Source: Candidatus Moraniibacteriota bacterium
GTDB taxonomy: Bacteria; Patescibacteriota; Minisyncoccia; Moranbacterales; UBA1568
Direction: 5' to 3'
Assembly: GCA_016699975.1 (NCBI GenBank)
Contig: CP064994.1
Coordinates: 711,828-775,827 of the forward strand
Length of the DNA stretch: 64,000 nt
The notes beneath the pieces were generated by a model, which was not told the DNA's origin, made no database searches, and was given only the letters and a program-made list of their open reading frames with translations. This document shows positions 3,105 to 62,814 of this stretch, piece after piece. A program made the position numbers and the translations under genes. Position 1 is the first letter of the stretch; every line of letters starts with the position of its first letter.

Positions 3105-4936
3105 ATGGCACTGAATTCGCGCCCCTTTTCTCCTCTCCCGTCTCCCACACCCGCTCCGAAATCGGATGATGTTTTTTTATTTTCTCGCCTCTCATTTTTG
3201 TGGATCACGTGTCTCTTCGGCGCTTTTTTCTTGGCTGTTTTTGGAGAGTTTTTGCGTACAGGAGTTTTCTTTCTCTCCGGAGGATTCCTCGCAGGAATCG
3301 GAATCACTCTCTGGAAATTTCGGCCTTCGCGAGAGCTCCTCATGTGGGGAGTAGCTTTCTTCCTTCTCGCCTTTTCCATAAGTTTTATCTCTTCGCCAAC
3401 CGTGTTCTCCGGACGCGATCAGGGTTCCTACGCAAACGCCGCCATTCGTCTCGTCGAAACCGAATCACTTCAAAGCCGCTCGCTCGTTTCCGATACGTTT
3501 TTCTCCCTCTATGGACCTGGGAAAGCACTCAACTTCCCCGGATTTTTTTATACGAGTGAGGGCGCCCTCACCTCACAATTTCCTCTGGGCTCCATTGTCT
3601 GGTTTGGTCTCAACTTTTCACTCTTCGGTGTTTCGGGATTCTCGGTCGCAAATTCTCTCTCCCCTCTTTTTTTCTTTGACGGGACTCTTCCTGCTTCTTC
3701 GACGATTCGTATCGATGCCCTTTGCCGCCGCGGGATCGCTCTCACTCGCGCTTTCCTTTCCCATTCTCTGGATTTCAGAGCAGACCCTGAGCGAAAATCT
3801 TGCGCTCGCGCTTTTCATCATACTCTCTCTTCAACTCGTGCGGTTTCTTGAGCGACCCAAGTGCAGCACCTGGATCACGATCGTCGCCGCGGGATCGTTT
3901 TTGTTCCTTGTCCGAATTGAGGGAATAGCCTTCTTCTTAGTTGCCACGATGCTGCCATTCTTCTTTCGCGAATCACGTCTTTTTCTTCGGGAACGGTTTT
4001 TCTCTCTCGTTCTTCCCTCGGCGACATTTTTTCTCGCTCTCTTTACTCTCAGCATAGGGGTCAGCACTCCGTTCTACATTACGATCGCAAAAGCTCTCCT
4101 TGAATCATTTTCGGAGTCGCGTCTTTCCGGAAACAGTCAAATGAATTTTTCTGCTTTGTCTTCCATTGGCACAAGACTTACTCTCTTTGCAACGTACGGC
4201 ATGCTGCCAGTTTTCATCCTTGCGTTCATGAGCATCAGCCTCCTCGTTCGCCGCCGAAATTTTCTCGCCCTTTCCCCGCTTTTTCTCACACTGCCCGTCT
4301 TTTTCTATTTCCTCAGTCCACACATTGCTTCCGATCACCCTTGGGTTGTGCGGCGATTCACGTTTTCCATCTGGCCCATAGTCGTTTTTCTTGCTTTCTA
4401 GAATCGAGTTCTTCTTTCGAAAAATAAAAGAAAGGGCTTCCTTTCCTTCCTTTCCTTCTCCGGGAGTGTTTTCGTTTTGCTGTGCACTGCTCCTTCTTTT
4501 ACCGGGCATTCCCGCGATTATTTCCGTCCTCCCCCTCTCCAATTCTCGTTTTCTCTCGGATACACAGCTCCTCTCGAGTCGTTTTGCCGATGAAGATCTG
4601 ATCCTGGTAGATCGCATGGCATCCGGAGATCCATTCTCCATGATCGCTGATCCGATGAACACCCTCTTCCGAAAAGAAGCCGTCTATTTTTTTCATCCCG
4701 AAGACCTACAAAAAATAAACCTGCGTCCTTTTCGAAACACGTATCTCTTGGTAAGAAAAGAGGAGGAAAAGCGCTACCGCGAGGCACTCCATCAAACTTT
4801 CACTTTCGAAGAACAAGCGCCGTACACTCTCAATATTTCTCTTCCCTCTCGCCCGACGAATCCGCGAGAACTTCCTCACAAAAAAAATGAAATTGTGAAT
4901 GGATCGGTTTTTCTGCTTCATCCTTCCTCCTTATGA
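3105..4936 (+). CDS. polytopic GT-C-type (ArnT/PMT-like) membrane glycosyltransferase, reading frame broken twice at T-runs
   Basis: Three consecutive ORF fragments (3042-3851, 3511-4401, 4391-4936) in frames 2, 0 and 1 read as one multi-TM protein. Its N-terminal loop motif is GRDQGSYANAAIRL. The junctions fall at T7 (3667-3673) and T5 (4385-4389), and removing one T at each restores a continuous ORF. The family call is tentative. Confidence 0.55.
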
Positions 4937-6774: not shown

Positions 6775-7921
6775 GGATTGTTGTACAGGCTGCCGACCTC
6801 GATGCGCCCCGTATCGACGGAACCCGCATTTACTTGCTCCGGCTTCTCGAACGTTTTGGCGCGCTCACCCCACAACACGCGTGGCACCTTTTTCATCGAA
6901 AGCCATTTAACCCTGCACTCACTCCTCCTTCATTCAAAAATTATGAGGAACACTGTATTCCGTTTCCCTGTTTCTGGACACAAACGCGCTTCTCCTGGGA
7001 AATAATGCGAAGAAAACCACATCGGCTGTTCATGCCGGTTCAGTCACTTCCTTTCTTTCTCTCCACGGAAACCGAGTCGATCGTGACGATCCATGATCTT
7101 GCTTTCAAAATTTTTCCCAAACATTTTCCCACCAAAGACCTTCGCCGACTCAACTGGTTTACCGACTTTTCGGTACGACAAGGAACGAGACTCATTGCCG
7201 TTTCAGAATCCACGAAGCGAGATATTCTCACTTTCTACCCAGATGTTCCCGAAAAAAAGATTCGTGTTATTCACCACGGTTTCGATCCCATCCCTCCCTC
7301 CACCCAACACCATGCCAGAGAAGAAATGGCGGCGCTCAATTTGTTTCATCTCTCCCCGAAAAACTATGTGCTCTATGTGGGAGCTATTCAGCCACGAAAA
7401 AATCTCCTTCGACTTCTCGATGCTTTTACTGCTTCTGCTGAACGGTTTCCCGAAATGAAACTCGTTCTTGCAGGAGAAGCCGCGTGGATGAGCGAAGCCG
7501 TGTTTGAGGCAGCTCAGCGCCATCCCTTTCGGGACCGCATCGTCATCACCGATCGAGTGTCGTTTCAAATGCGAGCCACCTTGTATCGAAACGCGAGACT
7601 GTTTGTCTTTCCTTCACTGTATGAAGGTTTCGGCCTTCCGATCCTGGAAGCGTTTTCGGCGCGCGTTCCGGTAATTGTCGCTCGCAATTCGAGCCTCACC
7701 GAAGTCGCCGGAAACGCCGCTTTCTTTTTGACGCCCAAGAAAGCAGCGAACTCCAAAGTGCGATCGAAACACTGTGGGAAGACTCAAGAAAACGGGAAGA
7801 TCTGATCGCGCGTGGCACACGAGAGCTGGAGCGATTCTCCTGGGATCGGTGCTCATCCGAAACCGCCTCGTGGATTCTTGGCGATGAGTCTCATTCCTCA
7901 AAGATTCACGCAGGAGAGTAA
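6771..7921 (+). CDS. glycosyltransferase family 1 (GT4-type), frame broken near the 3' end
   Basis: Contains FPSLYEGFGLPILEAFSARVPVIVARNSSLTEVAG, the classic GT1 EX7E region. After the T5 run at 7725-7729 the conserved C-terminus (DAQESSELQSAIETLWEDSRKREDLIARGTRELERFSWDRC...) continues in frame 1 to a TAA at 7919-7921. Confidence 0.8.
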
Positions 7922-8210
7922 GGAAAGAAAATATCCAAAGGACGAGAGTTTTACAAAAATATCACAGCGATTCGAAAAACTTTTTATAAAGAGCGGTCGC
8001 GAAGAGTGAACGACAAGATCAGCATTTCACAACAGAACAAAATTTTGAAAGTGTTTTTCCTTCTCACCGTAAAAATATTCCCGAAGCAATGGGGAACATT
8101 TTTGAGTGAGTCTGCAGAAAAGACTCGAGACGAATGCGGACTCTCTCTCCAAAAATCGTGAACCCTGTGGGAACAAGAAGGGTGCTCGGGAAAGAGGGCA
8201 GAAAAAAATT

Positions 8211-8921
8211 TTAGTGAAGAACAGTGCCTATCCCCCGCTCGCCAAGCAAAACGCGGCGCAAATTTTCGGTATCGGCTCCATCCATGACAGTGACTGAAAA
8301 CCCCTTCTCTTCGGCAAGTTTCGAAGCAATTGGATCGAAAGGCACATTCATTCCAGGACGCCAGACATCTCCAATGAGGGCGCGGTATTTTTTCCACGAC
8401 AGGGATTCAAATCGTGTCGCATCCGTGTATTCCTTGGGATTCCGGTCATAGACACCGTCCACATTGGAGAGATTGAGGAGAGAAGAAAAGCCCAAATATT
8501 CCGCAAGCAAAACAGCAATGTAATCCGTTGAGAATCCAGGTCTCCATCCACCCGCCACCAAGATCGGTTCTTTCACGTGTAAAAAGTCTTCGAGATCGTG
8601 CGGGTTCGTGTTAATTTTCGGAAACGCAAACTCGCGAAACACCGTTCGCAGAAAGTGTGCATTCATGCGCGTCGCATGGATGCCAAGCCAATCCTTGTCT
8701 TCGTCTTCGATATGGTGAATCTGTCCCGCAGCATTGATATATCGCCTCGCGGTCTTCCCTCCACCAACGACCAGAACAAACGAGCAACCGTCTCCGATAC
8801 GTTCAACGATCGTTTCGTAAAATCGACCGATAAATCCCGTATCGATTTCATCAGGAACAACAAGCGAACCCCCAACCGACAGTAAAAATTTTTTCGGCGT
8901 CATGCGTGAAGTAGAGTTCAA
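8211..8921 (-). CDS. pyrH: UMP kinase, archaeal/amino-acid-kinase type
   Basis: 236 aa. Motifs LSVGGSLV, VVGGGKTARRY, LVAGGWRPGFSTD and SNVDGVYDRNP are typical of archaeal-type UMP kinases. Confidence 0.8.
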   Translation of the reverse strand: MNSTSRMTPKKFLLSVGGSLVVPDEIDTGFIGRFYETIVERIGDGCSFVLVVGGGKTARRYINAAGQIHHIEDEDKDWLGIHATRMNAHFLRTVFREFAFPKINTNPHDLEDFLHVKEPILVAGGWRPGFSTDYIAVLLAEYLGFSSLLNLSNVDGVYDRNPKEYTDATRFESLSWKKYRALIGDVWRPGMNVPFDPIASKLAEEKGFSVTVMDGADTENLRRVLLGERGIGTVLH

Positions 8922-10156
8922 GATTTAAGAAGATTTACCACTTCTTCAAACGAACACATCGTCGCCTCAGATTTCGATCGTTCTTTGACCTCAGCCCCAC
9001 CATGTTGAAGCGAGCGTTTCGAAAGGACGATTCGGTACGGAATACCAATAAGATCACTGTCGGCAAATTTTTCTCCCGCACTCCCTTCCCGATCGTCAAA
9101 CAAGACATCAATCCCAAGATGAGCAAGTTTCTCGTACCACAAAAGGGCCACTCGGTCTTCGCCAAGGGAGAGAAGATGCGCCCGAAACGGCGCAACCGAC
9201 TTGGGCCAGACGATGCCACGATCGTCACACAAGGTTTCCACAATCGTCCCCATGAGGCGCGTCGGCCCGATGCCATAACTCCCCATGACGACGGGTTTTG
9301 CTCTCCCACTCTGGTCCATATAGAAAAGACCAAGCGCTTCCGAAAATCGTGTGCCGAGCTTAAAAATATTGCCAACTTCTATCGAAGTTTTCTTTTCAAG
9401 AGCCGCTCGGTCGAGCCCCAGATCGGACAAGACCTCGTCGGTGTAGACTTCTTCGTTCACGGCGATATTCTTTTCTCGTGAAAGATAAATTGTATCTTCT
9501 CCTGCGTCGCTCAACGCCTGAAATTCGTGACTGTATTTGGAAAAAATACCGCCACTCGCGAACGTTTTAAAGGTGATCGCACCGATCCCCACGCGCTCGA
9601 AGATTGTTGTGTACGCTTCTGCACACCGTTCGTAAAACGCATCAAGATCTGCTTCGTTCTCATTGAAAGAATAGAGATCTTTCATCAAAAATTCGCGCCC
9701 GCGCATAATCCCGCTTTTCGCTCGTTCTTCGTTCCGAAACTTCGTTTGTATCTGATAGCTGTAGACCGGCAAATCGCGATATGACGAGATATGTTGTTTC
9801 ATGATCGCCGTGATCGGCTCTTCGTGGGTAAACCCAAGCCCAACCTCTGTCCCATTTTTGAGATGAGTTTTAAACCAATTGTCGACCGCGTCGTCGCTCC
9901 AACGGTTCGTCGCCTCCCACATCTCGGGATTTTGGAGAGCGCTTAAGAAAACTTCCCGCCCCCCGATTCGATCCATTTCTTCTCGGATGATCGCTTCAAT
10001 TTTTCGAAGTACGCGGAGTCCGAGCGGCAGAAATTCGTAGACGCCCGCCATTTCTTTGTGGATGAAGCCGGCCCGAATAAGCAATTGCGCATTCCGACTC
10101 ACTTCATCTGTCGGATTTTCGCGCCTCGTTTTCGTAAAAAGTTCAGATTGCTTCAT
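8918..10156 (-). CDS. proS: prolyl-tRNA synthetase (short form without the insertion editing domain)
   Basis: 412 aa. The N-terminus QSELFTKTRRENPTDEVSRNAQLLIRAGFIHKEMAGVYEFLPLG and class II motifs (FRNEERAKSGIMRGREF) match ProRS. Confidence 0.9.
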   Translation of the reverse strand: MKQSELFTKTRRENPTDEVSRNAQLLIRAGFIHKEMAGVYEFLPLGLRVLRKIEAIIREEMDRIGGREVFLSALQNPEMWEATNRWSDDAVDNWFKTHLKNGTEVGLGFTHEEPITAIMKQHISSYRDLPVYSYQIQTKFRNEERAKSGIMRGREFLMKDLYSFNENEADLDAFYERCAEAYTTIFERVGIGAITFKTFASGGIFSKYSHEFQALSDAGEDTIYLSREKNIAVNEEVYTDEVLSDLGLDRAALEKKTSIEVGNIFKLGTRFSEALGLFYMDQSGRAKPVVMGSYGIGPTRLMGTIVETLCDDRGIVWPKSVAPFRAHLLSLGEDRVALLWYEKLAHLGIDVLFDDREGSAGEKFADSDLIGIPYRIVLSKRSLQHGGAEVKERSKSEATMCSFEEVVNLLKS

Positions 10157-10371
10157 AGGACTTAGGACTATTGGACACGCAGAAATAAAGATGATCTTTA
10201 TTGAGAGCTTCCATCATCTTATCGGGTTCTTCCCTCGAAAGCAACCGATCTCTCATGAAGCCAAGAAGAGCCTCGAAACATCATTTATTCAAAGGATTAG
10301 AGTAAATTCTCATCTTTGTAAAAATAAGAAAAAGAATACTGCTCTAACCTTTTTGGTTCATGATAATGTAA

Positions 10372-10758
10372 AAAAGTAATACGCGCACCAATATCCAAGC
10401 TGAACATTCTCTTTCAGGAAAAAGAGTACCGTTACTTTTTATCTTTACGGGACAGGAACTGTACCAACATTACAAAGGAGGAATTGACGAAGTCATTGTC
10501 GTAGCATGCCACAGTGAAACTTTAGAGGAATTCGTTGTTTACAAATCAATGTACAATGAAATTGAGTGTGATCGAGGCTCTTTCTGGGGAAGACCAACAT
10601 TCATGTTCTTCGAAAATGTCATCGTTGATGGCAAAGTAAAATCACGTTTCACACTATTGAAAAAGAAGGGGGATGTATCCTGCTATTGTAGAGAAATTGA
10701 TAAAAAGCAATCCCTTGTCTCGAATTCGTTCTATCCTATACAAGTCCCTTTATTTTAA
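10372..10758 (+). pseudogene. DUF1653-like remnant without a canonical start codon
   Basis: The frame-0 reading ...GQELYQHYKGGIDEVIVVACHSETLEEFVVYKSMYNE...FWGRPTFMFFENVIVDGKVKSRF matches the DUF1653 pattern (YRHYKG..Y.V...H.ET.E..VVY..LY....W.RP..MF). There is no ATG/GTG/TTG between the upstream stop (10369) and the conserved core, only a CTG at 10459. Confidence 0.45.
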
Positions 10759-10845
10759 GCAGGGTCTACTATAGATATTTTTCATATATATTTATAGGGA
10801 GAAACGGCTTGTGTAAGCTACAAAATTCCATAGGATCTTTTGAAA

Positions 10846-12232: not shown

Positions 12233-12234
12233 CC

Positions 12235-15479: not shown

Positions 15480-16741
15480 TTATGTGTGGAATCTATGCTT
15501 AAACGCTCGTCTAAAACCAGCGTCTTCAGCTTCTTTTACGGTAAATGCGTAAAATTCACCTTTACTTTTCGTGATTACAGTTCTGTCATACTGCTGATCC
15601 ATTGGTAAGTGGTATATTTTCGTATTACCAGACTCGTCATAATTTTTGTTGCATTTAATTCTCGGGAAATTCCCAATCGGCTTGTTTTCGATGATCTCAA
15701 CACTTAATGCCTTTGCCATTTCTTTTGCTCTTTCGGATAAAGATATAGATGTAAAAATATTGGTCGCAGTTTATTTTCAGTTAAAAACCTTGCAAACTCT
15801 TCAAATGTTTTCGGTTTATTATGACTCCCAAAGTTTTTAATCCAATATTCCATGGTTGTACCAAACAATTGAAAGATGTGTTTTTCGTGTATTTCTTTAT
15901 AGTGCGCCCAATATTTACACTGAATGATACAAACCTCATTACCTTTCTTGGCGATAATATCTCTGCCTAAATCATCGAACCCGTCAATTATACCTTTGTA
16001 TTCGATAGAATAGCCTTTCTGTTCATAGATGTATCCGACGTACATCTCATAATCTCTTCCGATTGCCCATTTTGATTTATTTCTATTTTTTAGGTATCTG
16101 TCCAATGCTTTTTGATTTCTCTCCACGGAAGGGAGCTTTTTATATTCTTCAGGAGTTAAGAAATTTTTAACACGGTCTTCGCTATTATCGTCATCTCCAT
16201 CGTCATCAATCTTTACAGGAATTTCTTCATTTTCATCCTCAGCAATTAAATCAGTTAGCCAAGGAAATAGCTTTTCAAAGTAGTTAATTTTATAGTTCAG
16301 TATTTTATTTTCCCTTCTCAAAACTTTTTTTTCACTTTTTACCTCACGAACGATTTCCGCTGTTGTATGGGCTGGATGTTTTTTTGTGTTTAGATATTTT
16401 TCAAACTTTGAATCTTTCAATGCAAAATACTCAGAAAATGCTTCTGCTAACCAAGGAAAACCCATTGATTTTTGAGCAGCTATTTTTTTGACTTCTTCTT
16501 TATCTTGCGCAACTTTGTGATTCCATGATTCTACTTTTGATACCCAATTTTTTCTATCTTCTTCAACTTTCAATTCATGCATTTTTATAGAATTTTCCAA
16601 GCTATCTAATTTTGGTTTCAGGTCAAGATACTTTTTGGAATTAGAAACTGCCTCGCTGATCCACGAAATTACTTTCCAAAGTACGGAAATCAAAATGATG
16701 ATAAGTATCCATGCGTAATCTTCCATAAATGTTTCTGGCAC
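15480..16741 (-). CDS. Mrr-type (PD-(D/E)xK) restriction endonuclease with an N-terminal TM/coiled-coil region, frame broken at a T-run
   Basis: Core GRDYEMYVGYIYEQKGYSIEY...DLGRDIIAKKGNEVCIIQCKYW matches the Mrr_cat pattern (D...QCK). The ORFs 15704-16741 and 15480-15719 join through the A5/T5 run at 15743-15747 to give ...PIFFTSISLSERAKEMAKALSVEIIENKP.... The C-terminal tail is KIYHLPMDQQY...FTVKEAEDAGFRRA. Confidence 0.7.
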
Positions 16742-18336: not shown

Positions 18337-19264
18337 TTATATTCGGAGATACCGGCGAACCGCAAGGAATCCACTCAACGCTCCCACAAACACGCCCACA
18401 AAAAGAAGTCCCAAAAAGACCGAGGCCACATTCGAGAGAAAAGAGCCCATGAGCCCAGTTCCTTCCACGATGCTGCTTGTCATCGGGTTTGCGCGCTGAA
18501 AAGAAATATACGAATAGAGGAAAAAGAGAGACAATCGCAGCGATTCCTCCATAGAGGATGCCTTCGACAACCGAGGGAGTGCGAACATAGAGATTGGAGG
18601 CGCCGACGAGGCGCATGATTTCAAAATCCTCGTGGCGTGCGTGCATGGTAAGACGAATGGTATTGAACATAACGAGAAACGCAATCAACAGAAAAATCAC
18701 CCCAAGAATCGCTCCCTGCCGAACCGCTTCTTCGCGAATCGAAGCGAGTCGATTGATCACCGATTCGTTCTCGCGATAATTGATGCGAAAAATATCATCT
18801 TTAAACGAGGACGTTTCCAGTGCGCGATTGATGGTTTCGTAGTCGCTGGGCGAACTCGCCTTTATGGAAATTGAGGGGAGGGAGGGATTCCCTCCGATTT
18901 CCTCGAGGGCCTGTTCGATAATTTCTTTGTTTCCGGCAAGCTCGCTTCGTTTACGAAAGGTTTCGAGCGCTTCGTCTTCGGATGTGTAGACGGCCGTTTT
19001 CACTTCCCGATATTTCTCCAGCTCTTTTTTGATGGCGAGAATTTTTCCTTCGCTCGTCCCGGCTTCGAAAGAAACGGTGATATCCATTTTATTCTCGAGA
19101 TTTTTGAGAATCGAATTCGTTGCGATTGCTTGGACAGCCGCGAGACCAATCACAAAAAGCGCGAGCGAAGTCGTAAGAATAGCGGAAACCGAAAGCCATC
19201 CACTTCGCACAAAGCTTCTCTCCCCTTCTCGCACTGCCCGCATGAGTTTTATTCCCTTTGACAT
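18337..19264 (-). CDS. ftsX: cell division permease FtsX, frame broken at a homopolymer
   Basis: N-terminus MRAVREGERSFVRSGWLSVSAI, a periplasmic domain and TM helices. After the A5 run at 18521-18525 the conserved C-terminus (...LYSYISFQRANPMTSS...GFLAVRRYLRI) continues in the frame of ORF 18337-18684. Confidence 0.85.
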
Positions 19265-20324: not shown

Positions 20325-21432
20325 TTATGTTGCCGAAACCATGAATTTCGAGTGATCCTTCTTCAGAAAACTTTCCATGAATTCGTCCAGTTTTCCATCA
20401 AGAACATCGGAGGCCTGCGGTGTTTCGTATTTGGTGCGATGATCTTTCACGAGCGTATATGGATGGAGCACATACGAACGAATTTGACTTCCGAACGCCG
20501 CACTCTTCTCGACCCCGCGTAATGAACGCTGCTCCGCCTCTTGTGCCTCCAATCTTTGCTGCTCGAGTTTGGCGCGCAGCATTGAAAGGGCGGTTTCTTT
20601 GTTCTGAAGTTGGGACCGCTCCGTTTGGCAACTCACGACGATACCGCTCGGAATATGTCGAATGCGCACTGCTGTTTCTGTCTTATTCACATTTTGTCCG
20701 CCCGCTCCCGACGAACGATAGGTATCCACTTCGATATCTTCGGACCGAATTTCCACGCCTTCCTTCGCAGAAAGTACCGGGAGCACTTCGACCGACGCGA
20801 ATGAAGTTTGTCGAAGGTGATCAGCATTAAAGGGTGAGAGTCGAACCAAACGATGCGTCCCCATCTCTCCAAAGAGATATCCGTACGCGTACTCGCCCGT
20901 TATTTCGATCGTTGCGCTTTTGATACCCGATTCGTTGCCGCGCAATTCTTCAAGGAGTCGCGACGAAAACTTCCGACGCTCTGCCCATCGCACATACATT
21001 CGCACGAGCATCTCCGCCCAATCCTGAGCATCGACACCACCAGCTCCACTCTTTACCGAAAGAAGAGCACTATGACGATCATACGGCCCATCGAAGTTCG
21101 TCCGAAATTCCAACGCCTCGATCTCCGAAGCAATATCCGCAAACTCCCGTTCAAGTTCGACAGCCTCTTCTTTTTCCACTTCAAGACTCGAGAGCTCTCG
21201 AATATCAGAAAGCTCCTTTTCCAACCGGTCGAAGAGCGCAACTTCAGACTGGAGAGACTCTCGCTCCTTGAGAATATGCGACGCCTCTGTGCTCTTACTC
21301 CAAAATTCCTCTTGTTGCGATTCGCGATCAAGTTCTGTGACGCGCGATCTTTTGTGTGCGACGTCAAAGAGAGTCCCGCAAGTGCAGGAGTTTTCGAGTC
21401 ATCATTTCGGCTCGCGTCCGAATATCATCCAT
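20325..21432 (-). CDS. prfB: peptide chain release factor 2 with programmed +1 frameshift
   Basis: A 22-codon ORF0 ([22 protein letters not shown]) ends at CTT TGA C. The +1 frame continues [23 protein letters not shown]... into the 299-aa ORF, which carries SPF and [23 protein letters not shown]. Confidence 0.9.
21363..21369 (-). other. prfB +1 programmed ribosomal frameshift site (CTT TGA C)
   Basis: Canonical RF2 autoregulatory slippery site with an upstream G-rich (GCGGGA) SD-like element. Confidence 0.85.
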
Positions 21433-22524: not shown

Positions 22525-22974
22525 AAACCCCCTACCTCCCCGCTCCCTGCACCTGCCACAAGAAGGAGGAACAGGAAGTATCCCGACACCCACACTTCCA
22601 GGCACCGTTTTGTACAGAGCAGGTCATCCCGACAAAGGTAACGGGTGTCTGTGCACTCGTTGTATCAATATTCGCATGAGTCACTGTTGCTGTGACAGGT
22701 CCCTGGCACCAGTTTCCATTCTGTGTCCCACTACAAGCCCCGGTGTACTCAACCCAGCTACTGGTTCCAGGATTGTACCAATACCCCTTTGTGTACGAGA
22801 CTCGTGTTTGATTTCAGGAATCCCTATCGTTGCCTTCAGGGGTATGGATGTCACTTGCAGTACACTCTGCGGCAACAAGAGGCGTATTTGAAAGAAAGAG
22901 GTCAAAGGGACTGCCATAGCCTCCGGGGAGAGAAGAAGAAGGAGTGAGGGTAGAGCAGGGGGAGAAGGTGGGGG
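22525..22974. repeat. inverted repeat copy A (450 bp)
   Basis: The reverse complement matches 41460-41909 with 5 substitutions and 2 single-base indels, from a manual base-by-base alignment. Confidence 0.9.
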
Positions 22975-27579: not shown

Positions 27580-27772
27580 TCAAAATCAAAACGCATTCAA
27601 ATACCATTCAAATACTTGGGAACTGCTGCAAAAAGACTGGGAAGCAAAATGGCGTCGGTTTTCCAGGCCCTCCCCTCTCACAAACGCCGAAACTCTTCCT
27701 CAGTGTACGGAGAAACTGAGATGAAGTCAAAGCACGATTTTCGAAGTCGAACATGGAAAACGCAACAAAAAT

Positions 27773-28126: not shown

Positions 28127-28404
28127 ATCGTTGCAGAAAAAAATTATATGTCTGGTATAGAAAACACGGCTCCAATGCTTTCAAAATTATTGACTCACAT
28201 TCGCAGAAGTTCGTTTCAAAAATGCTCCACCCTCTTCCCTTTCAAATATCATGTGAGGAAACCCCCCACAAAGAGGAGGAGCATGAAAGTGAGTTTGAAG
28301 GAAACACTTTCGATTGCCAAAAGAGGAGACACGGTACTCTGGTGCAAATCTTTTGAAGTATATTCTTCTCTTCTCAACAAGTGATCTGCTTTTTTTCAAA
28401 ACTT

Positions 28405-29371: not shown

Positions 29372-30791
29372 TCACAGCGATACCGAAACAAGTTCTTTCC
29401 CAATTTTCCACACATCGCCCGCTCCGAGCGTTACGAGAAGATCGTCTTTTCCCACCCTTGAGGAAAAATGAGCAATCACGTCTTCTTGTGTTGGAAGGTA
29501 CATCGCTTTATTTCGAGAATAGCGATTCATCAGCGTTACCATCTCGTGAGAAGAAACACCTCCCGCCGTTTCGCGGGCGCTTCCATAAATATCAAGGACG
29601 GCAACCTGGTCTGCGGCATCGAAGCTCTGGGCAAATTCAGGAAGAAGCGCTTTGGTACGAGAAAACGTATGTGGGTGGAATACCGCAATAATATTTTTTT
29701 CTGGGAAAAGTTCGCGGAATGCCGAAAGTGTTGATTTTATTTCTTCCGGATGATGCGCATAGTCATCATAGATGACTGCTCCGTTTCGCTCCCCAACATA
29801 TTCGAATCTTCGAGCGGTGCCGAAAAAGTTTTCCATGCCGACACGAATCGCATCGACATCAAATTTGAGGGCCCGAAGCAGCGTAACAACTGCACAAGCA
29901 TTGAGCGCATTATGCCGACCTGCGAGTCGCAGGCGAAATGTGCCCAAATCTTCTTCCCCTTCGAAGAGGCGGAACGATTGATGAAATGGTCCTTCGAGTA
30001 TTGGAGCATATTCGGAAATTCTTATATCGTTTCCGGGAAGAAAACCGTAGGAACGTTTTTCCGCTCGGGCGGACTTTGCGACGTCGAGCACTGCCGCACT
30101 GTCTCCCCAAAACACCAGAAAGCCGTGGGAGGGGATGCGCGAGACAAGTTTTCGAAACACTTCTGTATACGAGGCCATATCAGGAAAGAAGTCGGGGTGA
30201 TCCCAATCAAGACTCGTGAGAAGAACGCTCCAGGGAGTATAGTATTCGAATTTATTCTGATATTCATCGGCCTCCGCTACAAAATACAAACCCGCCCCCG
30301 GAAGCGCATTTCCGCCCCAGGAAGAAATTTTGCTCCCAACAAGCGCGAGCGGATCAACACCCAAAAATTTGAGTGTTTCCGAAAGAAGCGCGCTGGTCGT
30401 CGTCTTGCCGTGCGTCCCCCGTCACCAAAATTGAGAGTCGTTCTCGTGTGAGCGCCCCAACTGCTTCGGGATAGCTCATCACCCTCACCCCTTCTCGCGC
30501 GAAGGCACTCGCGAGTTCCGCATTTGTATCCGGTTTGTACGCGGTCGAACACACAATTGTATCGCTATCTTGAGGAATATTCCTCGGGTCGAATCCCTCA
30601 ATCGGCTTTATGCCACGCTTTGCAAGCACATCGTCGGTAAAAAATCGTTCACTCGTATCGGATCCGGTCACACGTATGCCTCGTGACGAGAGAATTTCGG
30701 CAAGAGCAGCCATACCGGCACCTTTGATGCCGATCATATGGACGCGCTTCACAGAAAGAAGAGAGGGTTCTGATTGAGTAAAAGCAATCAT
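29372..30791 (-). CDS. murC: UDP-N-acetylmuramate--L-alanine ligase, frame broken at a C5/G5 run
   Basis: The N-terminal fragment (VHMIGIKGAGMAALAEIL...LSILVTG) and C-terminal fragment (VDPLALVGSK...AEADEYQ...) join through 30426-30430. Removing one base gives VTGTHGKTTTSALLSETL, the Mur ligase P-loop. Confidence 0.85.
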
Positions 30792-32110: not shown

Positions 32111-33254
32111 CTAGACTCTTTTCCCTTCCAGTGTAGATTCTTTCCCGATCCGTATCAAGATGCCCATCGCACAGAGAAGAAACACGACAGACGTCCCGCC
32201 ATAACTCACGAAAGGAAGGGGGATCCCCGTGAGTGGAATAAGGGCAGTCGCAGCGGCAATATTGATAAAAGCCTGGAAGAGAACCCACGCAACAATACCC
32301 GTTGCGACATAACGCCCGAAATCATTGGAGGCATTTTTTGCGATTCGCAGTCCTTGCCAGGCGATGAAAAGAAACATCCCCAGCAAAAGAAGAGAAACAA
32401 GGAACCCCCACTCCTCGGCAAAGACGGCAAAGATAGAATCGGTCACGGGTTCGGGAAGGTAGTTGAACTTTTTGTCGGCTGTAGCCGAGCCCTGCGCCGA
32501 ATATTCCTCCGCTTCCGATCGCTATGAGTGCCTGGTTTACCTGATATCCAGCACCCTGCGGATCAAAGTCAGGATTGAGAAAAACGAGGAAACGCTGCAA
32601 GCGGTACGGTGCCATCCGAATAAGAACGCCGAGAGACACGAGTCCCAAAACAAAAAGGCCAAAGAGGTGCATGAGCCGCGCGCCCGCCACAAAATACATC
32701 GCGAGTGCCACCAAGAAAATAAGCCCGAACGTTCCTGTATCGGGCTGCTTCAAAATAAGAAAACCAAGCAAGCCGACGATCACGAGAAACGGCACAAGAT
32801 CCTCGAAAAAATCTCCCGCGAGCGTTCGCTCCCGACGCGAAAACCACGCTGCAAGGTAAACGATAAATGAGAGTTTGGCCATCTCGGATGGCTGAAAAGA
32901 AAACGGGCCGATCGAAAGCCATCGACTCGCTCCGTAAACGCGCTCGCCAATGCCCGGCAAAAGAACCGCTACCAGCGCAAGGAGTGTCACGAAAAAAAAC
33001 GGCAGAGCAAATGTTCTCCAAAAAGAAATCGACACTCTTTGGAAAAGAAAAAAAGCGATGAGCCCTACCCCGACACCCATAAGCTGTCGCTTCAAAAAGA
33101 AGTAACCGTCTCCGAAACGAGTTTCCGCATAAAACACTCCCGCACTCGCAACAGTCAGAAGACCGATCGCCACCAAGAGGAGGACGACCGCGGAAAGACT
33201 CTTCGTATGAACAGCTCTCGAAGATTTCATGGGCATGTCCGAAATTCCTTTCAA
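32111..33254 (-). CDS. ftsW: SEDS-family peptidoglycan polymerase (FtsW/RodA), frame broken at a T5/A5 run
   Basis: The fragments 32322-33254 (...QALIAIGSGGIFGAGLGYSRQK) and 32111-32446 (TDSIFAVFAEEWGF...PLPFVSYGGTS) join at 32469-32473. Removing one base gives ...RQKFNYLPEPVTDSIFA, the conserved SEDS motif. Confidence 0.85.
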
Positions 33255-33443: not shown

Positions 33444-34156
33444 TCACGTCGAAAAAGAGGCTTGAGGTGAATCGGCATCCTCTGTACGGGAAGAAGTTGT
33501 GCGGCGCTCAGCGCGTCGCCACGCTTCGATGGCCGCGTGATTCCCGCTTAGAAGCACGTCGGGAACACACCAGCCGTTAAAACATTCGGGTTTCGTATAC
33601 TGCGGATACTCGAGCACCCCTTCTTCGGCATGCGATTCGGTCTTGGCGCTTTCTCCATTCCCGAGCACGCCCGGAACGAGACGCGCGATTGCATCAGCCA
33701 CAACGAGCGCCGCGAGTTCACCTCCCGTCAACACAAAATCTCCGATCGAGAGTTCTTCGTCCGCAACATGCTCTGCCACGCGCTCGTCGACGCCTTCGTA
33801 TCGTCCGCAAATAAAAATAAGTTGATCGTATGCAAGAAGGCGCTTCGCATCTTTTGAGAGAAGCGCTGTCCCTTCGCCGACAAGAGGATGACTCGCGTAC
33901 GCGAAAGCTTCCCTGATTCGTTTTCCAAAGATCGAACCGCTTCAACAGCCCGGAATATCGGCTCTCCCTTAAGCACCATGCCCGCCCCCCCACCGTAGGG
34001 CGTGTCGTCCGCTTTGTGGTGCTTATCGGTCGTAAAATCACGGATATCGTGAACGGAAAAAAAGAGGAGTCCTTTCTCTTGCGCGCGCTTCAAAATAGAT
34101 TCGCCAAGATACGGCAAACACATGTTCGGAAAAAGCGTGAGAATATCGAATCGCAT
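33444..34156 (-). CDS. trmD: tRNA (guanine37-N1)-methyltransferase, frame broken at a T4/A4 run
   Basis: The N-terminus [12 protein letters not shown]...[13 protein letters not shown] and the C-terminal fragment ...[12 protein letters not shown]...[14 protein letters not shown] join at 33852-33855. Adding one base restores ...[24 protein letters not shown]. Confidence 0.85.
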
Positions 34157-39443: not shown

Positions 39444-40351
39444 ATGAAATCACTTTCTTTCGGAAAAGTCACGTGGATTGATGTCACTGATCCGGGACCA
39501 ACCGACATCCTTCATCTTCAAGAACATTTTAATGTTCATCCTGTTGCGATCGAAGAATTTTCGACGCCAACCTATCAGCCAAAGGCACTCGGATTCGAGA
39601 ATTGCCTGTTCCTCTCAGTTCATATTCCCCTTTTAATATTGAGAGTCGTACCACCTATCCGGGCGAAGTCGACATTATTCTTACCGCTACCCACCTCATC
39701 ACGGGACACAAAAGCGACATTTTTCAGATCAATGATTTTTTCTCTTCTCTCGAAAAGATCGAAGGAAGACAAAGACTCTTCATGAGCGAGACACCCGCCC
39801 ACCTCATGTACCACTTGCTTGAAAATCTGTTCGGTTCGTGTTTCCCTCGACTCGACCATATCGCAAAAAATCTCGACGCGATCGAAGACAACGTTTTTCA
39901 TGGAAAAGAAAAAGAAATGGTCTTCGAGATTTCTGTTGTGAAGCGCGATATCCTGAATTTCCGACGCACCCTGAAGCCGCAACGCTCTATTATTGAATCT
40001 CTTTTTCAGAAGCAAAGTCCGTTTATTCCCGACGGACTCAAGGTCTATTTTCAAGATCTGATCGGCACAAACATCCGTCTGTGGAATATTCTGGAGAACA
40101 ACAAAGAAATTATCGAGTCGCTTGAAGCAACAAACAACTCCCTCCTCTCCAACAAGCTCGATCTCACAATGAAGGTGCTCACCATCTTTTCAGCGATCAT
40201 GCTGCCGATGACCGTCTACTCGAATATTCTCGCGATGAGCGCGAGCATTCCTTTCGGACACAGTCCCTACGCCTTTTGGATTCACGTGAGCATCATGCTT
40301 CTCATTTCTTGTATCACAATTGTTATTTTTCGCATGAGAAAATGGTTCTAA
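39444..40351 (+). CDS. corA: CorA-family divalent cation transporter, frame broken at a T4 run; GMN motif replaced by AMS
   Basis: The fragments 39444-39785 and 39602-40351 join at 39631-39634. Adding one T gives ...[23 protein letters not shown]. The C-terminal two TM helices ([29 protein letters not shown]) align with CorA ...LTFIAGIYGMNF. Confidence 0.8.
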
Positions 40352-46316: not shown

Positions 46317-46568
46317 TCACGAGGGGAATGAAGCGGTGAGTTCGACATCGAAATCCGTCTTCTCCGCCGGCGCTTCTCCACCTCCTGGAGCTCCCGCTCC
46401 CGGCATCATACCTCCCATCATAACGGGCGCTGCTGCCGACACACCAAACTTTTCTTCGAGCACTTTGACGAGTTCCGAAAGATCAAGGACACTCATCTTT
46501 TCGATTTCTTCAACCAACTTCGCAAACTTGGCGGGCACTTCCACCGCCTCTTTTTTTTCTTCCGACAT
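46317..46568 (-). CDS. rplL: ribosomal protein L7/L12, truncated (C-terminal domain missing)
   Basis: [49 protein letters not shown]...[12 protein letters not shown] matches the L12 N-terminal domain, hinge and first residues of the C-terminal domain, then ends FPS-TGA. No frame downstream encodes the remaining ~60 aa of the C-terminal domain. Confidence 0.75.
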
Positions 46569-51220: not shown

Positions 51221-52539
51221 TTATCGCTTTTCTGCGTCGGAAATAATCGCATCGTTTTCCGACAAGCCGGAGAGAATCTCAATCATTCCATCGTCGCCGC
51301 GAAGCCCCGTCGTTACCATCCTTGTCTCGACGCGCGCATCAGGAAGAAGGACGCGAGCCTGCTTTGTCTCTCCCGATTCTTTCAGCAGGCGTTCGGGAAG
51401 GAGAAGCACGCCTCGCTTCTCAGAAATATGAATGTCGGCGTCTCCCGTCATTCCCGGCTTGAGACGTTCATCGCGGTTCGATAAGCGAAGTTTCGCTATA
51501 TAATAAACGACGTCTTGAATCACCGTAGCGTCTGGCTCCACGGAAATTACTTCGGCCAAAACGGTGTCGCCTTCCTCGAAGGCGTCGAAAGAAACCGTGG
51601 CGCCCATCCCAGAGCGCAGACGCGTTACATCCGACTCAGGAACTTTTACTTCAAGCAAGAGATCGTATGAAAGAAGTTTTCCGAAAGGGCTCGCGATCGA
51701 AGTGCCGACCACTTCGCCTTCCTCGTAATTCAGTTTCACAATTTTTCCATTTACCGGCGCGACGATTGCTGCTCGTTTTCCATTCTCAAGCGAAACAGCA
51801 TATGCGGCTTCCGCCGAACGAAGGGCGCTCGTTTCGAGTAAGCGTTGCCCCGACGAAGTGAGGGTTTCGACTTTCTCGCGCGCGGCACTCCACGCATTTT
51901 TCGCGGCAGTAACAGAGTTCTCACGATTTTTTTCGATTGTCTTGCGAGCTTCATCCGCCGATTTTCGGGCGTTTACTGCGGTCGTCAAGGTAAGCTTGGC
52001 ACTCCGCGATTCACTACTGTCTTCCCCTCGAGCATCCACCACTCCTTCATAATATTTTTTTGCGTCCGATTCGTAATCCTTGGCGTTTTGGTACGCAGCA
52101 TCCGCTGCCTTCCTCTCTTGATCTGCCGCACTCTTTACGGATTCGTAGTACAACTTCGCATCCTCTGCGCACGCGATGCTTCCCGCGTCGTTTCTTCACG
52201 GAGAAGCGACTCTGCTGAAGCGCGATCGACCGCCGCCTTTGCGCTCGCAATCTGTCCGTCGAAAGTTTTCGATTCGAGTCGCGCAACTGGCTCGCCCGCT
52301 GCCACATCCTCCCCAACTTTCACAGAAACGGAGGCAATACGGCCAGTCATTTCGAAATTGAGATCAATCTCTTGTTCCGCAACAAGAGTCGCACTCGCGG
52401 ACACCGTTTCACGAAGGTCTCCACGCACAACCTGAGTCGTTTCGTACGAAGGAGGGGCATTCACTCGACGAAAGTACCACCATGCCCCGGCGCCAACCAC
52501 AAGAAAAAATATGAGGATGACAATTCGCTTTTTTTTCAT
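51221..52539 (-). CDS. efflux transporter periplasmic adaptor (HlyD/MacA-type membrane fusion protein), frame broken
   Basis: N-terminal fragment: TM, then VVRGDLRETVSASATLVAEQEIDLNFEMTGRIASVSVKVGEDVAAGEPVARLE. C-terminal fragment: coiled coil, then APVNGKIVKLNYEEGEVV and a beta-barrel. They lie in different frames, with the shift somewhere in 52150-52210. Confidence 0.8.
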
Positions 52540-57964: not shown

Positions 57965-59131
57965 ACAAGTCGCGCTTCTCTCGTTTCCCCACCCTCCTCT
58001 CCCACACTTTCCGCAGCCCTTGTCTCAAGCTCCATCTCTGGTGTTCCTTCAATGCGAGTTCTCGTAATTTGATCTTCCACTTTCCCGAGTCGTTTGTCGG
58101 CTTCTTCGTACTTTTTCGCGGCATTCGAAATGTGACTCCCCAGCGTATCGAATTCTTTCGAGAAACGCTCATACTCGCGCCCGAGCCGATCCAGATTCCC
58201 CAAAATACTTTTCGCACGTTTCTCGACTTGCATGCCCTGAAGTCCCAAAAGGAGCGTTCGCATATAGGCATAAAAAGAATTTGGAGACACGGGAACAATT
58301 TTCTTTCGAAAGAGGTAGTCGGCAAGTCCGTCCCCTTCATTGTCTTTCACGACGATCTCGTAGTAGACGTTTTCTGCGGGAATATACATGAGTGCAAAAT
58401 CAGCGTCCCTCTTCGGGAACGATATATTTGCGGGCGATCGCATCGACATGCCGACGCACGTCCATCGAGAACAATTTGCGAAATTGCTTCCGACTCTCGT
58501 CGGAATCAGCCTCTACCAATTTTCGAAAATTTTCGAGCGGAAATTTCGAATCAATGCTAATAATGCCGCCCTTCAAATGTATCGCGGCATCAACCGTTTC
58601 GCCATTCTTAAAAGCATACTGAATCGAGTAATATTCCCGTGGGAAAATCTGCGACAGCATATCTTCGAGCATGAGCTCTCCAAACCCGCCACGAATTTTT
58701 GGCGAGCGAAGAATATCCTGAAGCGACCGCACGTCTTTCCCGACCTCAAGAATTCGACTGCTTGAATGCTTCACTTCTTGAAGCGCGACTCCTACTTCTT
58801 CGCGAACGCGTCCCATTTCGCCGCGAACCTCGGTAAACGATTTCGCGGCTCCGTCGAGGCGTTGATCGAGGCGCGCGGTATTGTCTTCGAGGCGGCGATT
58901 CACGTGCTCCTGAAAATTCCCAAGCTGCTGCAAAAAAGCTGACGAAAATCGATGAATGTCTTCCGCACTCGCTCGCTGCATGGTTTCCATCCGCCGCGCA
59001 AGATCATCACGCATCAATTCGGTTTCTCGAGAAGCCTCTCCCTTCCCACCAAAAAAGCGGTCGAACAAAAGAAAGAGAAGGATACCGAGAGCGACGAGGA
59101 GCATTGTAATTTCAAAAGCGTTCATGAACAT
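57961..59131 (-). CDS. rmuC: DNA recombination protein RmuC, frame broken
   Basis: N-terminal TM and coiled coil, then PKIRGGFGELMLEDML...DAAIHLKGGIISIDSKFPLENF. The second fragment continues DFALMYIPAENVYYEI...VSPNSFYAYM. The junction is near the C3/G3 run at 58406-58408. Confidence 0.85.
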
Positions 59132-60322: not shown

Positions 60323-62814
60323 ATGGCACGAAAACAGACCCCGCCTCCCGCTTCCGAAAAAATAACGGCGACGGCAAACGAGATATTCGTTGCAAAGAGC
60401 GGATTTTTGAAGCCGTACGCAACCGGCTTTCAGTATCTTCCCGACAATATTGCTCGGGAGCCTTTGGGTATGCTCGCGGGCGCCCTCGCGATCGACGATC
60501 GAAGTGAAACGTCGGGATATATCGTCAACTTTCTCGCCTCCCTCGCCAAAAAAGAGTACTATCTGAATCCTCGTCGCCCCGCGATCGAGAGTTTTGAAGC
60601 AGCTCTCCACAAAGTAAACCTGGGGCTCTCGGAGCTCGCAAAAGAAGGAAACACCGAATGGATCGGGACCTTGAACGCTGCTGTGTGTGCGGTCGAACGC
60701 AATAATTTACATTTTTCTGTAGCGGGCAAAGCGAAAGTACTCCTCCTGCGAGACCGACGCCTCTCTGTCATTAGCGACGGACTCGTCGAAACGGGAGAAT
60801 ATCATCCCATGAAAACATTCACCGATGTAGCAAGTGGGAAAATCTGTGCAGGCGATCGCATTCTCATTACAACACCAGAACTTTTTCCGCCATTTCCGAA
60901 CCCGAACTCGAGCGCTCGGCGGCTCGTCTCGACCGCGAGGGATTGGAACGATTCCTTGAAACCGCTGTCGTGAATCGTCTCGACCTCTCAGCAAGCGTCC
61001 TCATCGACATCCAGGCGATCGCCGAGTACGCGCGCCCAGCGGCGCCAAAGCGACCCCTTGCCTCTCCATCATCCGTTCCGAATGCCTGGAGCCTCACGGC
61101 TTTCGAATTTTCGAAACAAACCGGGATGAGTGTGGAAGCAGGCCTTGAGGCACGAGAAGAAGCTGAACGAGAAAAAGAACGCATCGACGAAAAAACCGGG
61201 CACATCTATATCACAGGGGACAGCATAGAAGAGCCTCGTCGCGAAGAATGGGAACGGGTTCGCCTCATCTCCGAAGAGTGGAAAGAGCGTTTGGGAGCGA
61301 TCTTTCGCCGCGGCATGCGAAGCATGCGCGAATATGTTGCCACTCGAAAGAAGCGCCGAGAAGAGCGTCTCTCCCTCCCTTCTCCTCAAGAGGTGACTTC
61401 CGAAGCAGTGCAGATACACACGCGAGAAACCTCCCCGAAAGAAGCAACAATGCACCCTTCCGAAACTTTCCCAACAGAAAAGAGTGAGAAAATCTTTCCT
61501 CCTCTTGAGGAAGAATCACTTGAGAGCGAGAGCGCTCCAGAAAGAGATGTAGTCGAAAAGAGAGCTGAAGTTTCAATTGACTCTGCCATCCTCCCACCGG
61601 AACATTCCGCCAACAACACTATTTCTTTTTTGAAATATTTTGCAAAACCATTTTTTGGCGCCTTGGTCAGCAATCTCTCCAAACACTCGCGGACAGTCGC
61701 ACACAGTGTTCCGCGCTTCTTCTCAAGAAAAACAGTTCACGTTCCTGTCCGTGAAGAGACTCCTTCAACCCTTTCCTCGCTGTTTCGACCGCTCTTTTTT
61801 TTCTTCCCAAGACTCGAGAAGGAAGCCAAGCGCGCTTGGAACTTTTGGAACCTACTTTCTCCAACAAAGCGTCGTCTTCTCCAAGGAATCATGCTTCTCA
61901 CACTCTTCGCAATCATAGGTTTCGTCATATTCCTTCTTACCAAAGATGCTCCCCCTTTGCCCGAAGAACCATCCTCTTTGAAAGAGAATCCCGCCTCTCC
62001 TTCGCCGCTCACGACTGAAAAAAATATTCGCTTCCTCAAAAATCCAACCACTCTCTTTGAGGGAGAAAGAATCCTTTCCATTGTACGACTCAAAGAATTT
62101 CGCCTCGTCATTACCGAGACGGCACTCTTTCGCCTCGGCGAACCCGGGAGTACTGCAGAAAAAGTGCCGTATCCCGAGGGCCGAGAAGCGAAAAAAGGGG
62201 TCGCCATGCTGGACTTAAATGCACTCATCCTCCTCATGAAAGACGGCACCATTCGTTTTTATACGCCTGTCAACAATCGATTTGCAAATGAGTCGTTTTC
62301 GCTCCCCAATTCTTCCGGAACTGCTGCCCTCGGCGCCTATATGACCTATTTATATGTCGCGAATTTCGAACAAAATTCGATAACGCGTCTCCCGCGCTCC
62401 GAAGGCGGATTCGCCAGCGGGGTGTCGTGGCTCAAGGAGCCAGTTGAGATTGACGAGCAGACTTCGCTCGCTCTCGGCGAATTCCTCTACCTCGCTCATC
62501 CAAGCGACATACGCGTCTACTCCCGTGGAACGCTCCAGAATATCTCCTTCGAAAAACCAGCACTTGTGCCAGACATCACCGCGCTTTCCCTTCCTGATCT
62601 CGAATCAACCTCTTTGTTTGCCCTCGACCAAAAAGAGGGGCGCATCTTTGAGTATCGCAAGGATACTGGCGCCATCCTCGCGCAGTACGCCCATGAATCC
62701 CTGAAGGGTGGAAAAAATTTCACCGTCGACACAAAGAACCGAAATGCGCTCGTGAATACCGAGACGCATGTTTTCTCTTTCTCTCTCGACGAACACTCTC
62801 TCCTCTCTCATTGA
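60323..62814 (+). CDS. large hypothetical membrane protein (possible PP2C/SpoIIE-like N-terminal domain), frame broken at a T5 run
   Basis: The fragments 60323-60973 and 60943-62814 join at 60882-60886. Adding one T gives ...ITTPELFSAISEPELERSAARLDREGLERFLE. The segment GTLNAAVCAVERNNLHFSVAGKAKVLLLRD is PPM-like. There is a central TM helix (LLQGIMLLTLFAIIGFVIFLL). Confidence 0.55.

Follow-up and report, generated by a model that had tools for sequence, protein, structure and literature searches.

Insertions and deletions in the homopolymers of Nanopore consensus sequences lead to frameshift errors, and bins with a coverage below about 40x need polishing with Illumina reads (PMC9262707). Frame breaks also occur in functional genes. 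A programmed +1 frameshift lies inside the essential gene prfB, which encodes release factor RF2; its site, a defined slippery sequence that has a UGA in frame, is conserved in all relatives. In addition, many frameshifted genes are found as pseudogenes in small genomes under reductive evolution, as in recently host-restricted bacteria. The genomes of Patescibacteria are reduced, and a host-dependent lifestyle is predicted for them (PMC8012365).

CP064994 is a circular contig of 1,048,819 bp from the Candidatus Moraniibacteriota (Moranbacterales) metagenome-assembled genome Hirt_18-Q3-R61-65_MAXAC.378, obtained from Danish activated sludge. The window analysed here is a stretch of 64,000 nucleotides of this contig, in which a first-pass annotation made from the sequence alone had counted at least 14 frame breaks, including breaks in essential genes. 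All 14 are present: Pfam models are split across neighbouring fragments, and the genes are intact in near-identical contigs assembled from short reads. With a probability of about 95%, these breaks are consensus errors of a low-coverage Oxford Nanopore metagenome assembly and not biology.

The contig was assembled from Nanopore reads with CANU and polished with Racon, two rounds of medaka and one round of Racon with Illumina reads (PMC8012365). Its coverage is 10.93 for Nanopore (npcov) and 5.38 for Illumina (ilmcov; Supplementary Data 3, PMC8012365). CP064994 thus combines the Nanopore origin, low coverage and limited short-read polishing of a long-read consensus artefact, and at about 11x Nanopore and 5x Illumina exactly this pattern of indels is expected. 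The open reading frame fragments of the window match exactly the NCBI proteins QQS20646–QQS20691 (IPL87_03690-03940), broken pieces included. Nanopore reads of that period miscount bases in short runs, and with too few accurate reads (about 5x Illumina) many of these miscounts would outlast polishing. Each remaining error of ±1 or ±2 would then split one gene, and the annotation pipeline would deposit the pieces as separate 'hypothetical proteins'.

The window was compared with contigs from six public metagenome samples, consisting of four Logan assemblies of SRA runs and two ENA assemblies (SRR11674037, SRR15021097, SRR12767646, SRR32934939, ERZ15185987 and ERZ27239125). Together, these contigs align to 54.4 kb of the window with 98.7–100% identity and differ from it by about 0.1–0.2% substitutions, so that they represent close relatives or the same population, identity of the cells not being proven. 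Comparison with close relatives had been proposed in the first-pass annotation, and it restored the frame at each covered site, with every covered gene intact (the GATase-like gene is treated below). The intact proteins of the relatives are MurC (472 aa), FtsW (374 aa), FtsX (302 aa), TrmD (237 aa), CorA (302 aa), RmuC (388 aa), a membrane-fusion protein (439 aa), a GT4 glycosyltransferase (383 aa) and two others of 607 and 830 aa. Wherever two or three samples overlap, they agree with one another, as at both breaks of the 607-aa gene (3661 and 4400/4401) and at the ftsW, trmD, corA and 830-aa gene sites. One sample each supports the sites at 7725, 18524, 52161 and 58402/58406 and the four events at 44152–45020, and the murC site at 30416 is supported by one aligned contig and by a 472-aa MurC of the same protein cluster in Logan and ENA. 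The Mrr and BNR sites were placed by a homologue of 72–89% identity and by an internal paralogue, respectively, not by a near-identical strain. Since the genes are whole in near-identical assemblies made from the short reads of other samples, the breaks are almost certainly errors in base count, and we infer that the Hirtshals organism itself would carry the in-frame versions. All sites are listed in Table 1.

Table 1. Differences between the window and the comparison sequences, with the prfB control site (coordinates are those of the window; strand of the gene; '.' for intergenic sites).
Feature	Position	Strand	Window versus comparison
607-aa membrane protein ('GT-C'-like), break 1	3661..3664	+	C4 vs C3 in L002 (SRR11674037) and L003 (SRR15021097)
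607-aa gene, break 2	4400..4401	+	T vs TT and G vs GG, net -2; T5 run unchanged
607-aa gene, in-frame	4437..4445	+	9-bp tandem duplication CTTCCTTTC; absent from L002 and L003
GT4 glycosyltransferase	7725..7729	+	T5 vs T6
Mrr-like nuclease	15753..15757	-	one base missing at or after T5 run (A5 forward)
ftsX	18519..18526	-	(TC)3 vs (TC)4 in L005; -2 nt, adjoins T5/A5 run
prfB (RF2), programmed +1 frameshift CTT TGA C	21363..21369	-	no indel vs L005 and L006; PCRF and RF-1 domains
fn3/'BNR'-like surface protein	22815..22842	-	compensating pair: extra G (G4 at 22839-22842 vs G3), one C short at 22815 (C vs CC)
Intergenic, upstream of secA	27629..27633	.	A5 vs A6
Intergenic, murB to S30AE gene	28332..28333	.	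GG vs GGG
murC	30416..30420	-	C5 vs C4; break inside VTGTHGKTTT P-loop
ftsW	32469..32473	-	T5 vs T4 in L001 (SRR15021097) and L016 (SRR12767646)
trmD	33852..33855	-	T4 vs T5 in L016 and L017
corA	39631..39634	+	T4 vs T5 in L018 (ERZ27239125), L019 (SRR11674037) and L020 (SRR32934939)
GATase-like gene, decayed N-terminal part	43715	-	extra T, outside homopolymer
524-aa protein gene	44152	-	CC vs CCC in L012
524-aa protein gene	44301	-	T7 vs T6 in L012
524-aa protein gene	44981	-	C5 vs C4 in L012
524-aa protein gene	45020 (to 45023)	-	T4 vs T5 in L012
rplL	46329..46330	-	junction of 303-bp deletion relative to L012
HlyD-type membrane-fusion protein	52161..52162	-	CC vs CCC
rmuC	58402..58408	-	A vs AA at 58402 and C3 vs C4 at 58406-58408; 1 nt lost at each, 4 nt apart
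830-aa protein gene	60882..60886	+	T5 vs T6 in L009 (SRR11674037) and L010 (SRR12767646)

Among the cell-envelope and division genes, the N domain of MurC lies on one fragment of the window and the M and C domains on the other, and the FtsW model is divided into positions 4–253 and 252–354 of 356. The C-terminal FtsX model (120 positions) is matched over 2–69 in the window and over 2–117 in the relative. The motifs that a repaired frame had been said to restore, VTGTHGKTTT in MurC and RQKFNYLPEPVTDSIF in FtsW, are both found in the intact proteins, at residues 123 and 254, respectively. The 472-aa MurC from Logan and ENA clusters with the deposited fragment QQS20657.1; similarly, the 830-aa Logan protein clusters with QQS20690.1 and QQS20691.1. 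Models for three other genes are divided in the same manner, at 2–77 and 66–194 of 195 for TrmD, 3–56 and 64–291 of 292 for CorA, and 2–162 and 167–281 of 291 for RmuC. After repair of one base, the trmD product matches the Logan protein P0031 along its entire length at 100% identity. The Glycos_transf_1 model (172 positions) extends over 14–144 in the GT4 fragment and over 14–170 in the intact protein, and the 524-aa open reading frame is unbroken in L012.

In the 607-aa gene, L002 and L003 read TTCTTAGGAATC where the window has TTCT-A-GAATC. The 9-bp duplication in this gene leaves the frame unbroken and is possibly genuine variation. In the Mrr-like gene, ...NKLRPIF and FTSISLSERAK... are in different frames; a 428-aa homologue (72% identity) follows frame -1 down to 15752 and frame -3 from 15755. 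Four JGI contigs read ...RPIFFTS... unbroken at this site, and L026 has TTTTTC where the window has TTTTT-. The compensating pair in the 'BNR'-like gene causes eight codons to be misread, and a TGA at 22814–22816 removes the last approximately 97 codons. A paralogous segment of the window (41460–41910, 98% identical) has neither indel and reads through. Two of the names used for these genes are weakly supported, since PMT_2 matches the 'GT-C' protein at E = 0.015, under the curated cut-off, and fn3 is the only domain found in the 'BNR' protein.

The coordinates given in the first-pass annotation hold for GT4, the BNR pair, ftsW, trmD, corA and 60882–60886, and several of the others were off by 3–40 nt. 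The murC and Mrr breaks had each been placed 10 nt away, at 30426–30430 instead of 30416–30420 and at 15743–15747 instead of 15753–15757. For the 'GT-C' gene and ftsX, neighbouring runs had been named: the T7 run at 3667–3673, just downstream of the extra C, is unchanged relative to the relatives, as is the T5 run at the second break, and the A5 run of ftsX only adjoins the altered dinucleotide. The T5 run at 43756–43760, named for the GATase gene, is also the same in the relative, the window-specific change being the T added at 43715. The breaks in the membrane-fusion protein, previously located only roughly, and in rmuC were both borne out, the former now pinned to 52161–52162 and the latter consisting of two deletions (58402 and 58406). 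About nine more small indels, among them the four in the 524-aa protein gene and the two intergenic ones (27629 and 28332), and the 303-bp deletion in rplL had not been listed.

Relative to the relatives, the homologue or the paralogue, the window contains 23 small indels (16 deletions and seven insertions), 21 of which are ±1 length changes of mononucleotide runs. The earlier statement that nearly all breaks lie at short homopolymers holds to this extent, but six events are in 2-nt runs, one changes a TC unit and one (43715) is in non-repeat sequence. Runs of at least 4 nt account for 9.9% of the window bases and for 14 of the 23 indels (binomial P = 2.8e-9), the exceptions including the eight events just named; for runs of at least 3 nt, the corresponding values are 21.8% and 17 of 23 (P = 1.5e-7). 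The density of frame-changing indels is approximately 37 per 100 kb. In the compared sequence, 86.7% of which is coding, 20 frame-changing indels were found against 49 substitutions, or about one indel per 2.5 substitutions. Seventeen of these 20 indels fall in coding sequence, where 17.3 would be expected without selection. The indels thus fall in coding and non-coding DNA as often as the share of each in the sequence predicts, with no sign of selection. The division of the substitutions into 25 non-synonymous and 19 synonymous was also considered as a strong selection contrast to the indels and was dropped, 19 to 25 being a mild synonymous bias and a weak contrast.

These features resemble the residual homopolymer errors of R9.4.1-era Oxford Nanopore assemblies (the IDEEL-score problem), with ±1 changes in short runs, deletions in excess of insertions (16:7), blindness to coding sequence, a low-coverage, under-polished bin, and fragments deposited as hypothetical proteins. 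Unlike such errors, a minority of the changes lie in 2-nt runs, in a dinucleotide unit or in non-repeat sequence. The 303-bp deletion, which removes the C-terminal domain of L7/L12 and the downstream spacer, also differs from a homopolymer miscount and is either a real variant or a structural error of the consensus or assembly.

Two loci of the window stand apart. In the GATase-like gene, two in-frame stops, TAG (about 43729–43731) and TGA (43602–43604), are common to the window and the short-read contig L015, so that this gene is probably truly decayed. Use of UGA as a sense codon, suggested by the TGA, was rejected: with table 11, long genes such as secA (878 aa) and dnaK (635 aa) are translated without interruption, and the second stop, being TAG, also counters an alternative code. 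The prfB site is the only frame break common to the relatives and served as a control. The only RNA genes that Rfam and tRNA scans revealed in the window were tRNA-Gln and tRNA-Thr, which have no bearing on the breaks.

Recent and real mass pseudogenisation would require a host-dependent CPR strain that is losing murC, ftsW, ftsX, trmD, rplL and other genes by slippage at short runs. The reduced genomes and predicted host dependence of Patescibacteria (PMC8012365) are in its favour, and the window shares with genomes under reductive evolution its many frameshifted genes, a small genome, a probably host-dependent lineage and one decayed gene, the GATase-like gene with its two stops. It is nevertheless very improbable, as all these genes are intact in relatives of 99.8–100% identity, the broken genes have no other decay, intergenic indel density equals coding density, and the coverage of the assembly (11x Nanopore, 5x Illumina) predicts the pattern. 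The breaks, unlike reductive-evolution pseudogenes, are private to one low-coverage assembly and include indispensable genes. Lesions common to relatives, or further decay, were found only in the GATase-like gene and at none of the listed frameshifts. A cell that had jointly lost murC, ftsW, ftsX, trmD and the L7/L12 C-terminal domain, with the neighbouring murG, murB, secA and dnaK intact, is not viable, given the essential functions of these genes. We regard it as similarly improbable that some window-specific lesions, above all the 303-bp deletion and the cell-envelope gene breaks, exist in the Hirtshals population; if true, a CPR episymbiont would survive although its ribosomal stalk protein is truncated or its peptidoglycan and division genes are inactivated.

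Still less probable is programmed recoding, in which full-length proteins would be produced by frameshifting of the ribosome or by slippage during transcription of the runs. One true case, the CTT TGA C site of prfB, is present in the window and kept in the relatives, and like the listed breaks it can interrupt an essential gene, but none of the 14 shares its conservation or its slippery site with an in-frame UGA. The relatives encode each of the other proteins in a single frame, with no conserved recoding site. The runs (1–7 nt) are of mixed composition (T, C, G, dinucleotide, non-repeat) with no common slippery motif, and -2 or paired corrections would be needed at 4400/4401, 58402/58406 and 18524. 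Transcriptional slippage needs runs of about nine or more A/T. An equally slight chance is given to phase-variable contingency loci, in which slipped-strand changes of repeats would switch surface or restriction genes on and off. Some of the affected genes (GT4, the putative GT-C, the Mrr-like nuclease and the gene of the fn3 surface protein) are of types in which phase variation is common; however, housekeeping genes and intergenic DNA carry the same kind of indel, and the runs are short, mostly 2–6 nt. Contingency repeats are typically 7–8 nt or more. Also, a single allele was seen throughout, with no second one among four to six independent samples. The preference of the first-pass annotation for homopolymer-length assembly error over pseudogenisation or slippage is therefore supported by the source of the sequence, the independent assemblies, the absence of a sign of selection and the prfB control.

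Exact-protein look-ups in short-read assemblies can replace read mapping for checking such records. Here, an exact look-up of contigs encoding DnaK and a 514-aa protein returned no contig, although the protein collection has NCBI entries for both, and a scan of the 514-aa protein against a collection of genome contigs found no relative, so that the species seems to be absent from that collection. The biological importance of the breaks is low, as they are a sequencing artefact and reveal no new mechanism. Their consequences concern the record. Fragments of murC (330 aa, QQS20657.1) and corA (249 aa, QQS20666.1) and the two pieces of the 830-aa gene (216 aa, QQS20690.1, and 623 aa, QQS20691.1) are listed separately in NCBI nr, each as a 'hypothetical protein'. 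By extrapolation, CP064994, which is labelled complete and circular, would contain several hundred frame-changing indels genome-wide, and missing pathways, pseudogenes or recoding inferred for Patescibacteria from this record would be misleading.

The window has a G+C content of about 48% and is densely coding. At each locus listed in the first-pass annotation, a recognizable gene is divided over two reading frames. The Pfam models for TrmD (2–77 and 66–194 of 195), CorA (3–56 and 64–291 of 292), RmuC (2–162 and 167–281 of 291) and FtsW (4–253 and 252–354 of 356) are each split over adjacent fragments. Similarly, the N-terminal domain of MurC lies on one fragment and the middle and C-terminal domains on the other, the FtsX C-terminal model ends at 69 of 120, and the Glycos_transf_1 model ends at 144 of 172 in the GT4 fragment. 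Because the models are divided between adjacent fragments, the breaks are real in the window sequence, and the list of them could be extended.

Comparison contigs were recovered by exact-sequence look-up of the intact window proteins and of two homology-search hits, P0031 (a Logan TrmD) and P0271 (a CorA). Twenty contigs were obtained from six other samples, namely the Logan assemblies of SRR11674037, SRR15021097, SRR12767646 and SRR32934939 and the ENA assemblies ERZ15185987 and ERZ27239125. They align over 54.4 kb of the window at 98.7–100% identity and, judged by sequence, appear to represent the same or a near-identical population. The genes given a product length in the table are whole in these contigs. 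With a one-base repair, the trmD product is 100% identical to P0031 over its full length. The conserved motifs that repair was said to restore do occur in the uninterrupted sequences: MurC has VTGTHGKTTT and FtsW has RQKFNYLPEPVTDSIF.

Sites of the small indels in the window, with the product of the intact gene in the comparison contigs
Position	Gene	Intact product (aa)	Change, window against relatives	First-pass placement
3661–3664	putative GT-C-like protein	607	C4 against C3	break correct, T7 run incorrect
4400, 4401	putative GT-C-like protein	607	two 1-nt deletions	break correct, T5 run incorrect
7725–7729	GT4	383	T5 against T6 (one relative)	exact
15753–15757	Mrr-like nuclease		A5 run	break correct, 10 nt off
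	ftsX	302	one TC unit lost at 18524, adjoining an A5 run	break correct, run incorrect
22815 with 22839–22842	fn3/'BNR'-like		indel pair	exact
27629, 28332	intergenic			not listed
30416–30420	murC	472	C5 against C4 (one relative)	break correct, 10 nt off
32469–32473	ftsW	374	T5 against T4	exact
33852–33855	trmD	237	T4 against T5	exact
39631–39634	corA	302	T4 against T5	exact
43715	GATase-like		non-repeat +T	break correct, site incorrect (T5 at 43756–43760, same in contig L015)
44152, 44301, 44981, 45020	524-aa gene			not listed
52161–52162	membrane-fusion protein	439	CC against CCC	listed, not pinpointed
58402, 58406	rmuC	388	two deletions	listed, now placed
60882–60886	large protein	830	T5 against T6	exact

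The Mrr frame switch was located between 15752 and 15755 against a 428-aa homologue (72% identical), and four JGI contigs read unbroken across it (...RPIFFTS...). No near-identical short-read contig was found among the 20 for 10907–18045. The region from about 8000 to 20000, which holds the Mrr-like nuclease, has a lower GC content (42–45% versus 48–50% elsewhere) and may be a strain-variable island.

A segment of about 450 nt occurs in two copies that are 98% identical, at 22525–22974 (minus strand) and 41460–41910 (plus strand). The first is the 3' end of the gene for the fn3/'BNR'-like surface protein and the second that of a gene for a 514-aa protein; thus, the two proteins have a common C-terminal domain. 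The 514-aa gene copy carries neither of the 'BNR'-like indels and, as an internal control, confirms them. Short-read contigs end at this repeat.

The indels of the window are private to the CP064994 assembly. At every site covered by two or three samples, these concur against the window, as at 3661, 4400/4401, 32469, 33851, 39631 and 60881, and several sites are supported by contigs of one sample only. The claim that the breaks fall nearly all at short homopolymers stood in the main: 21 of the 23 small indels (16 deletions and seven insertions) are length changes of mononucleotide runs, and 14 are in runs of at least four, which hold 9.9% of bases (P = 2.8e-9). Fitting it less well are six events in 2-nt runs, one dinucleotide unit and one non-repeat insertion, and some events form tight pairs (4400/4401, 58402/58406 and 44981/45020). 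This looks more like a consensus that failed locally at low depth than like homopolymer miscounts alone.

The source of CP064994 is the MAG Hirt_18-Q3-R61-65_MAXAC.378_cln, a single circular contig of 1,048,819 bp with coverage of 10.93x by Nanopore and 5.38x by Illumina (Singleton et al. 2021, PMC8012365, Supplementary Data 3), classified as Patescibacteria; Paceibacteria_A; Moranbacterales; UBA1568 (PMC8012365). It was assembled with CANU from Nanopore reads and polished with Racon, then twice with medaka and once with Racon on Illumina reads (PMC8012365). Homopolymer indels in Nanopore consensus sequences lead to frameshift errors, and Illumina polishing is needed for bins below about 40x (PMC9262707).

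Real mass pseudogenization is contradicted by the integrity of the same genes in populations that are 99.8–100% identical, and the genes concerned are essential; murC, ftsW, ftsX and trmD are among those hit. Over the 54.4 kb compared, 20 events change the frame, and 17 of them fall in coding sequence, where 17.3 are expected at 86.7% coding. These 20 stand against 49 substitutions. An indel to substitution ratio just under one-half would be far above general expectation for real variation between such close strains. The substitutions themselves (19 synonymous, 25 non-synonymous and five intergenic) are only mildly informative.

Programmed recoding, in which the breaks would be read through, is likewise contradicted, as the relatives are in frame and the contexts are short, heterogeneous and at times require a −2 correction. 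A positive control comes from the single genuine break of frame that the window contains: prfB (20325–21425) carries the canonical RF2 programmed +1 site, CTT TGA C (21363–21369, minus strand), which is conserved, with no indel, in the short-read relatives L005 and L006 and is the only break common to short-read relatives. Phase variation is contradicted by the shortness of the runs, by housekeeping and intergenic DNA being struck equally and by a lack of alternative alleles among the samples. On four independent grounds, namely the provenance (approximately 11x Nanopore and 5x Illumina), the privacy of the indels, their sequence context and the absence of any sign of selection, the frame breaks are very probably (about 0.95) homopolymer-length errors in the assembly and not a biological feature, as the first-pass annotation had preferred.

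A lesion of another kind, also unlisted there, is a 303-bp deletion at 46329/46330 in the minus-strand rplL (about 46330–46570), seen against contig L012 of one sample only (SRR11674037). With it go the whole C-terminal domain of L7/L12, a protein of 139 aa in L012, and the spacer downstream; no direct repeat flanks the deletion. A defect of assembly or consensus is the probable cause, and a real allele is less likely. The GATase-like gene (43098–43900, minus strand) carries TAG and TGA stops in frame, and its Pfam alignment runs across the TGA. Because both codons are common to the window and short-read contig L015, the lineage probably has a truly decayed gene here, or a 166-aa remnant, independently of the assembly errors.

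Other differences were observed. A 9-bp in-frame tandem duplication (CTTCCTTTC, 4437–4445) in the 607-aa membrane protein gene is absent from L002 and L003, from independent samples, and may represent genuine variation between strains. The trmD/ftsW spacer has a 3-bp (AAG) deletion at 33390 relative to L016 and L017. A C-run at 34614 differs in length in L017 and is the same in L016. This run lies within the stretch of about 585 nt that separates dnaK from trmD (34157–34741), where only a 44-aa ORF is called in relatives and where Rfam and tRNA scans found no Rfam family and no tRNA.

By exact-sequence look-up, the window ORFs, broken pieces included, correspond to NCBI proteins QQS20646.1 to QQS20691.1 (IPL87_03690 to 03940), annotated 'MAG: Candidatus Moraniibacteriota bacterium'. 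Pieces of MurC, CorA, the 830-aa protein and the Mrr-like nuclease were deposited separately as 'hypothetical proteins' (QQS20657.1, QQS20666.1, QQS20690.1, QQS20691.1 and QQS20646.1). Since such fragments entered NCBI nr as separate proteins, the artefact has spread into protein databases. The sole value of the finding is one of caution regarding the record CP064994 and the protein fragments that it has placed in public databases.
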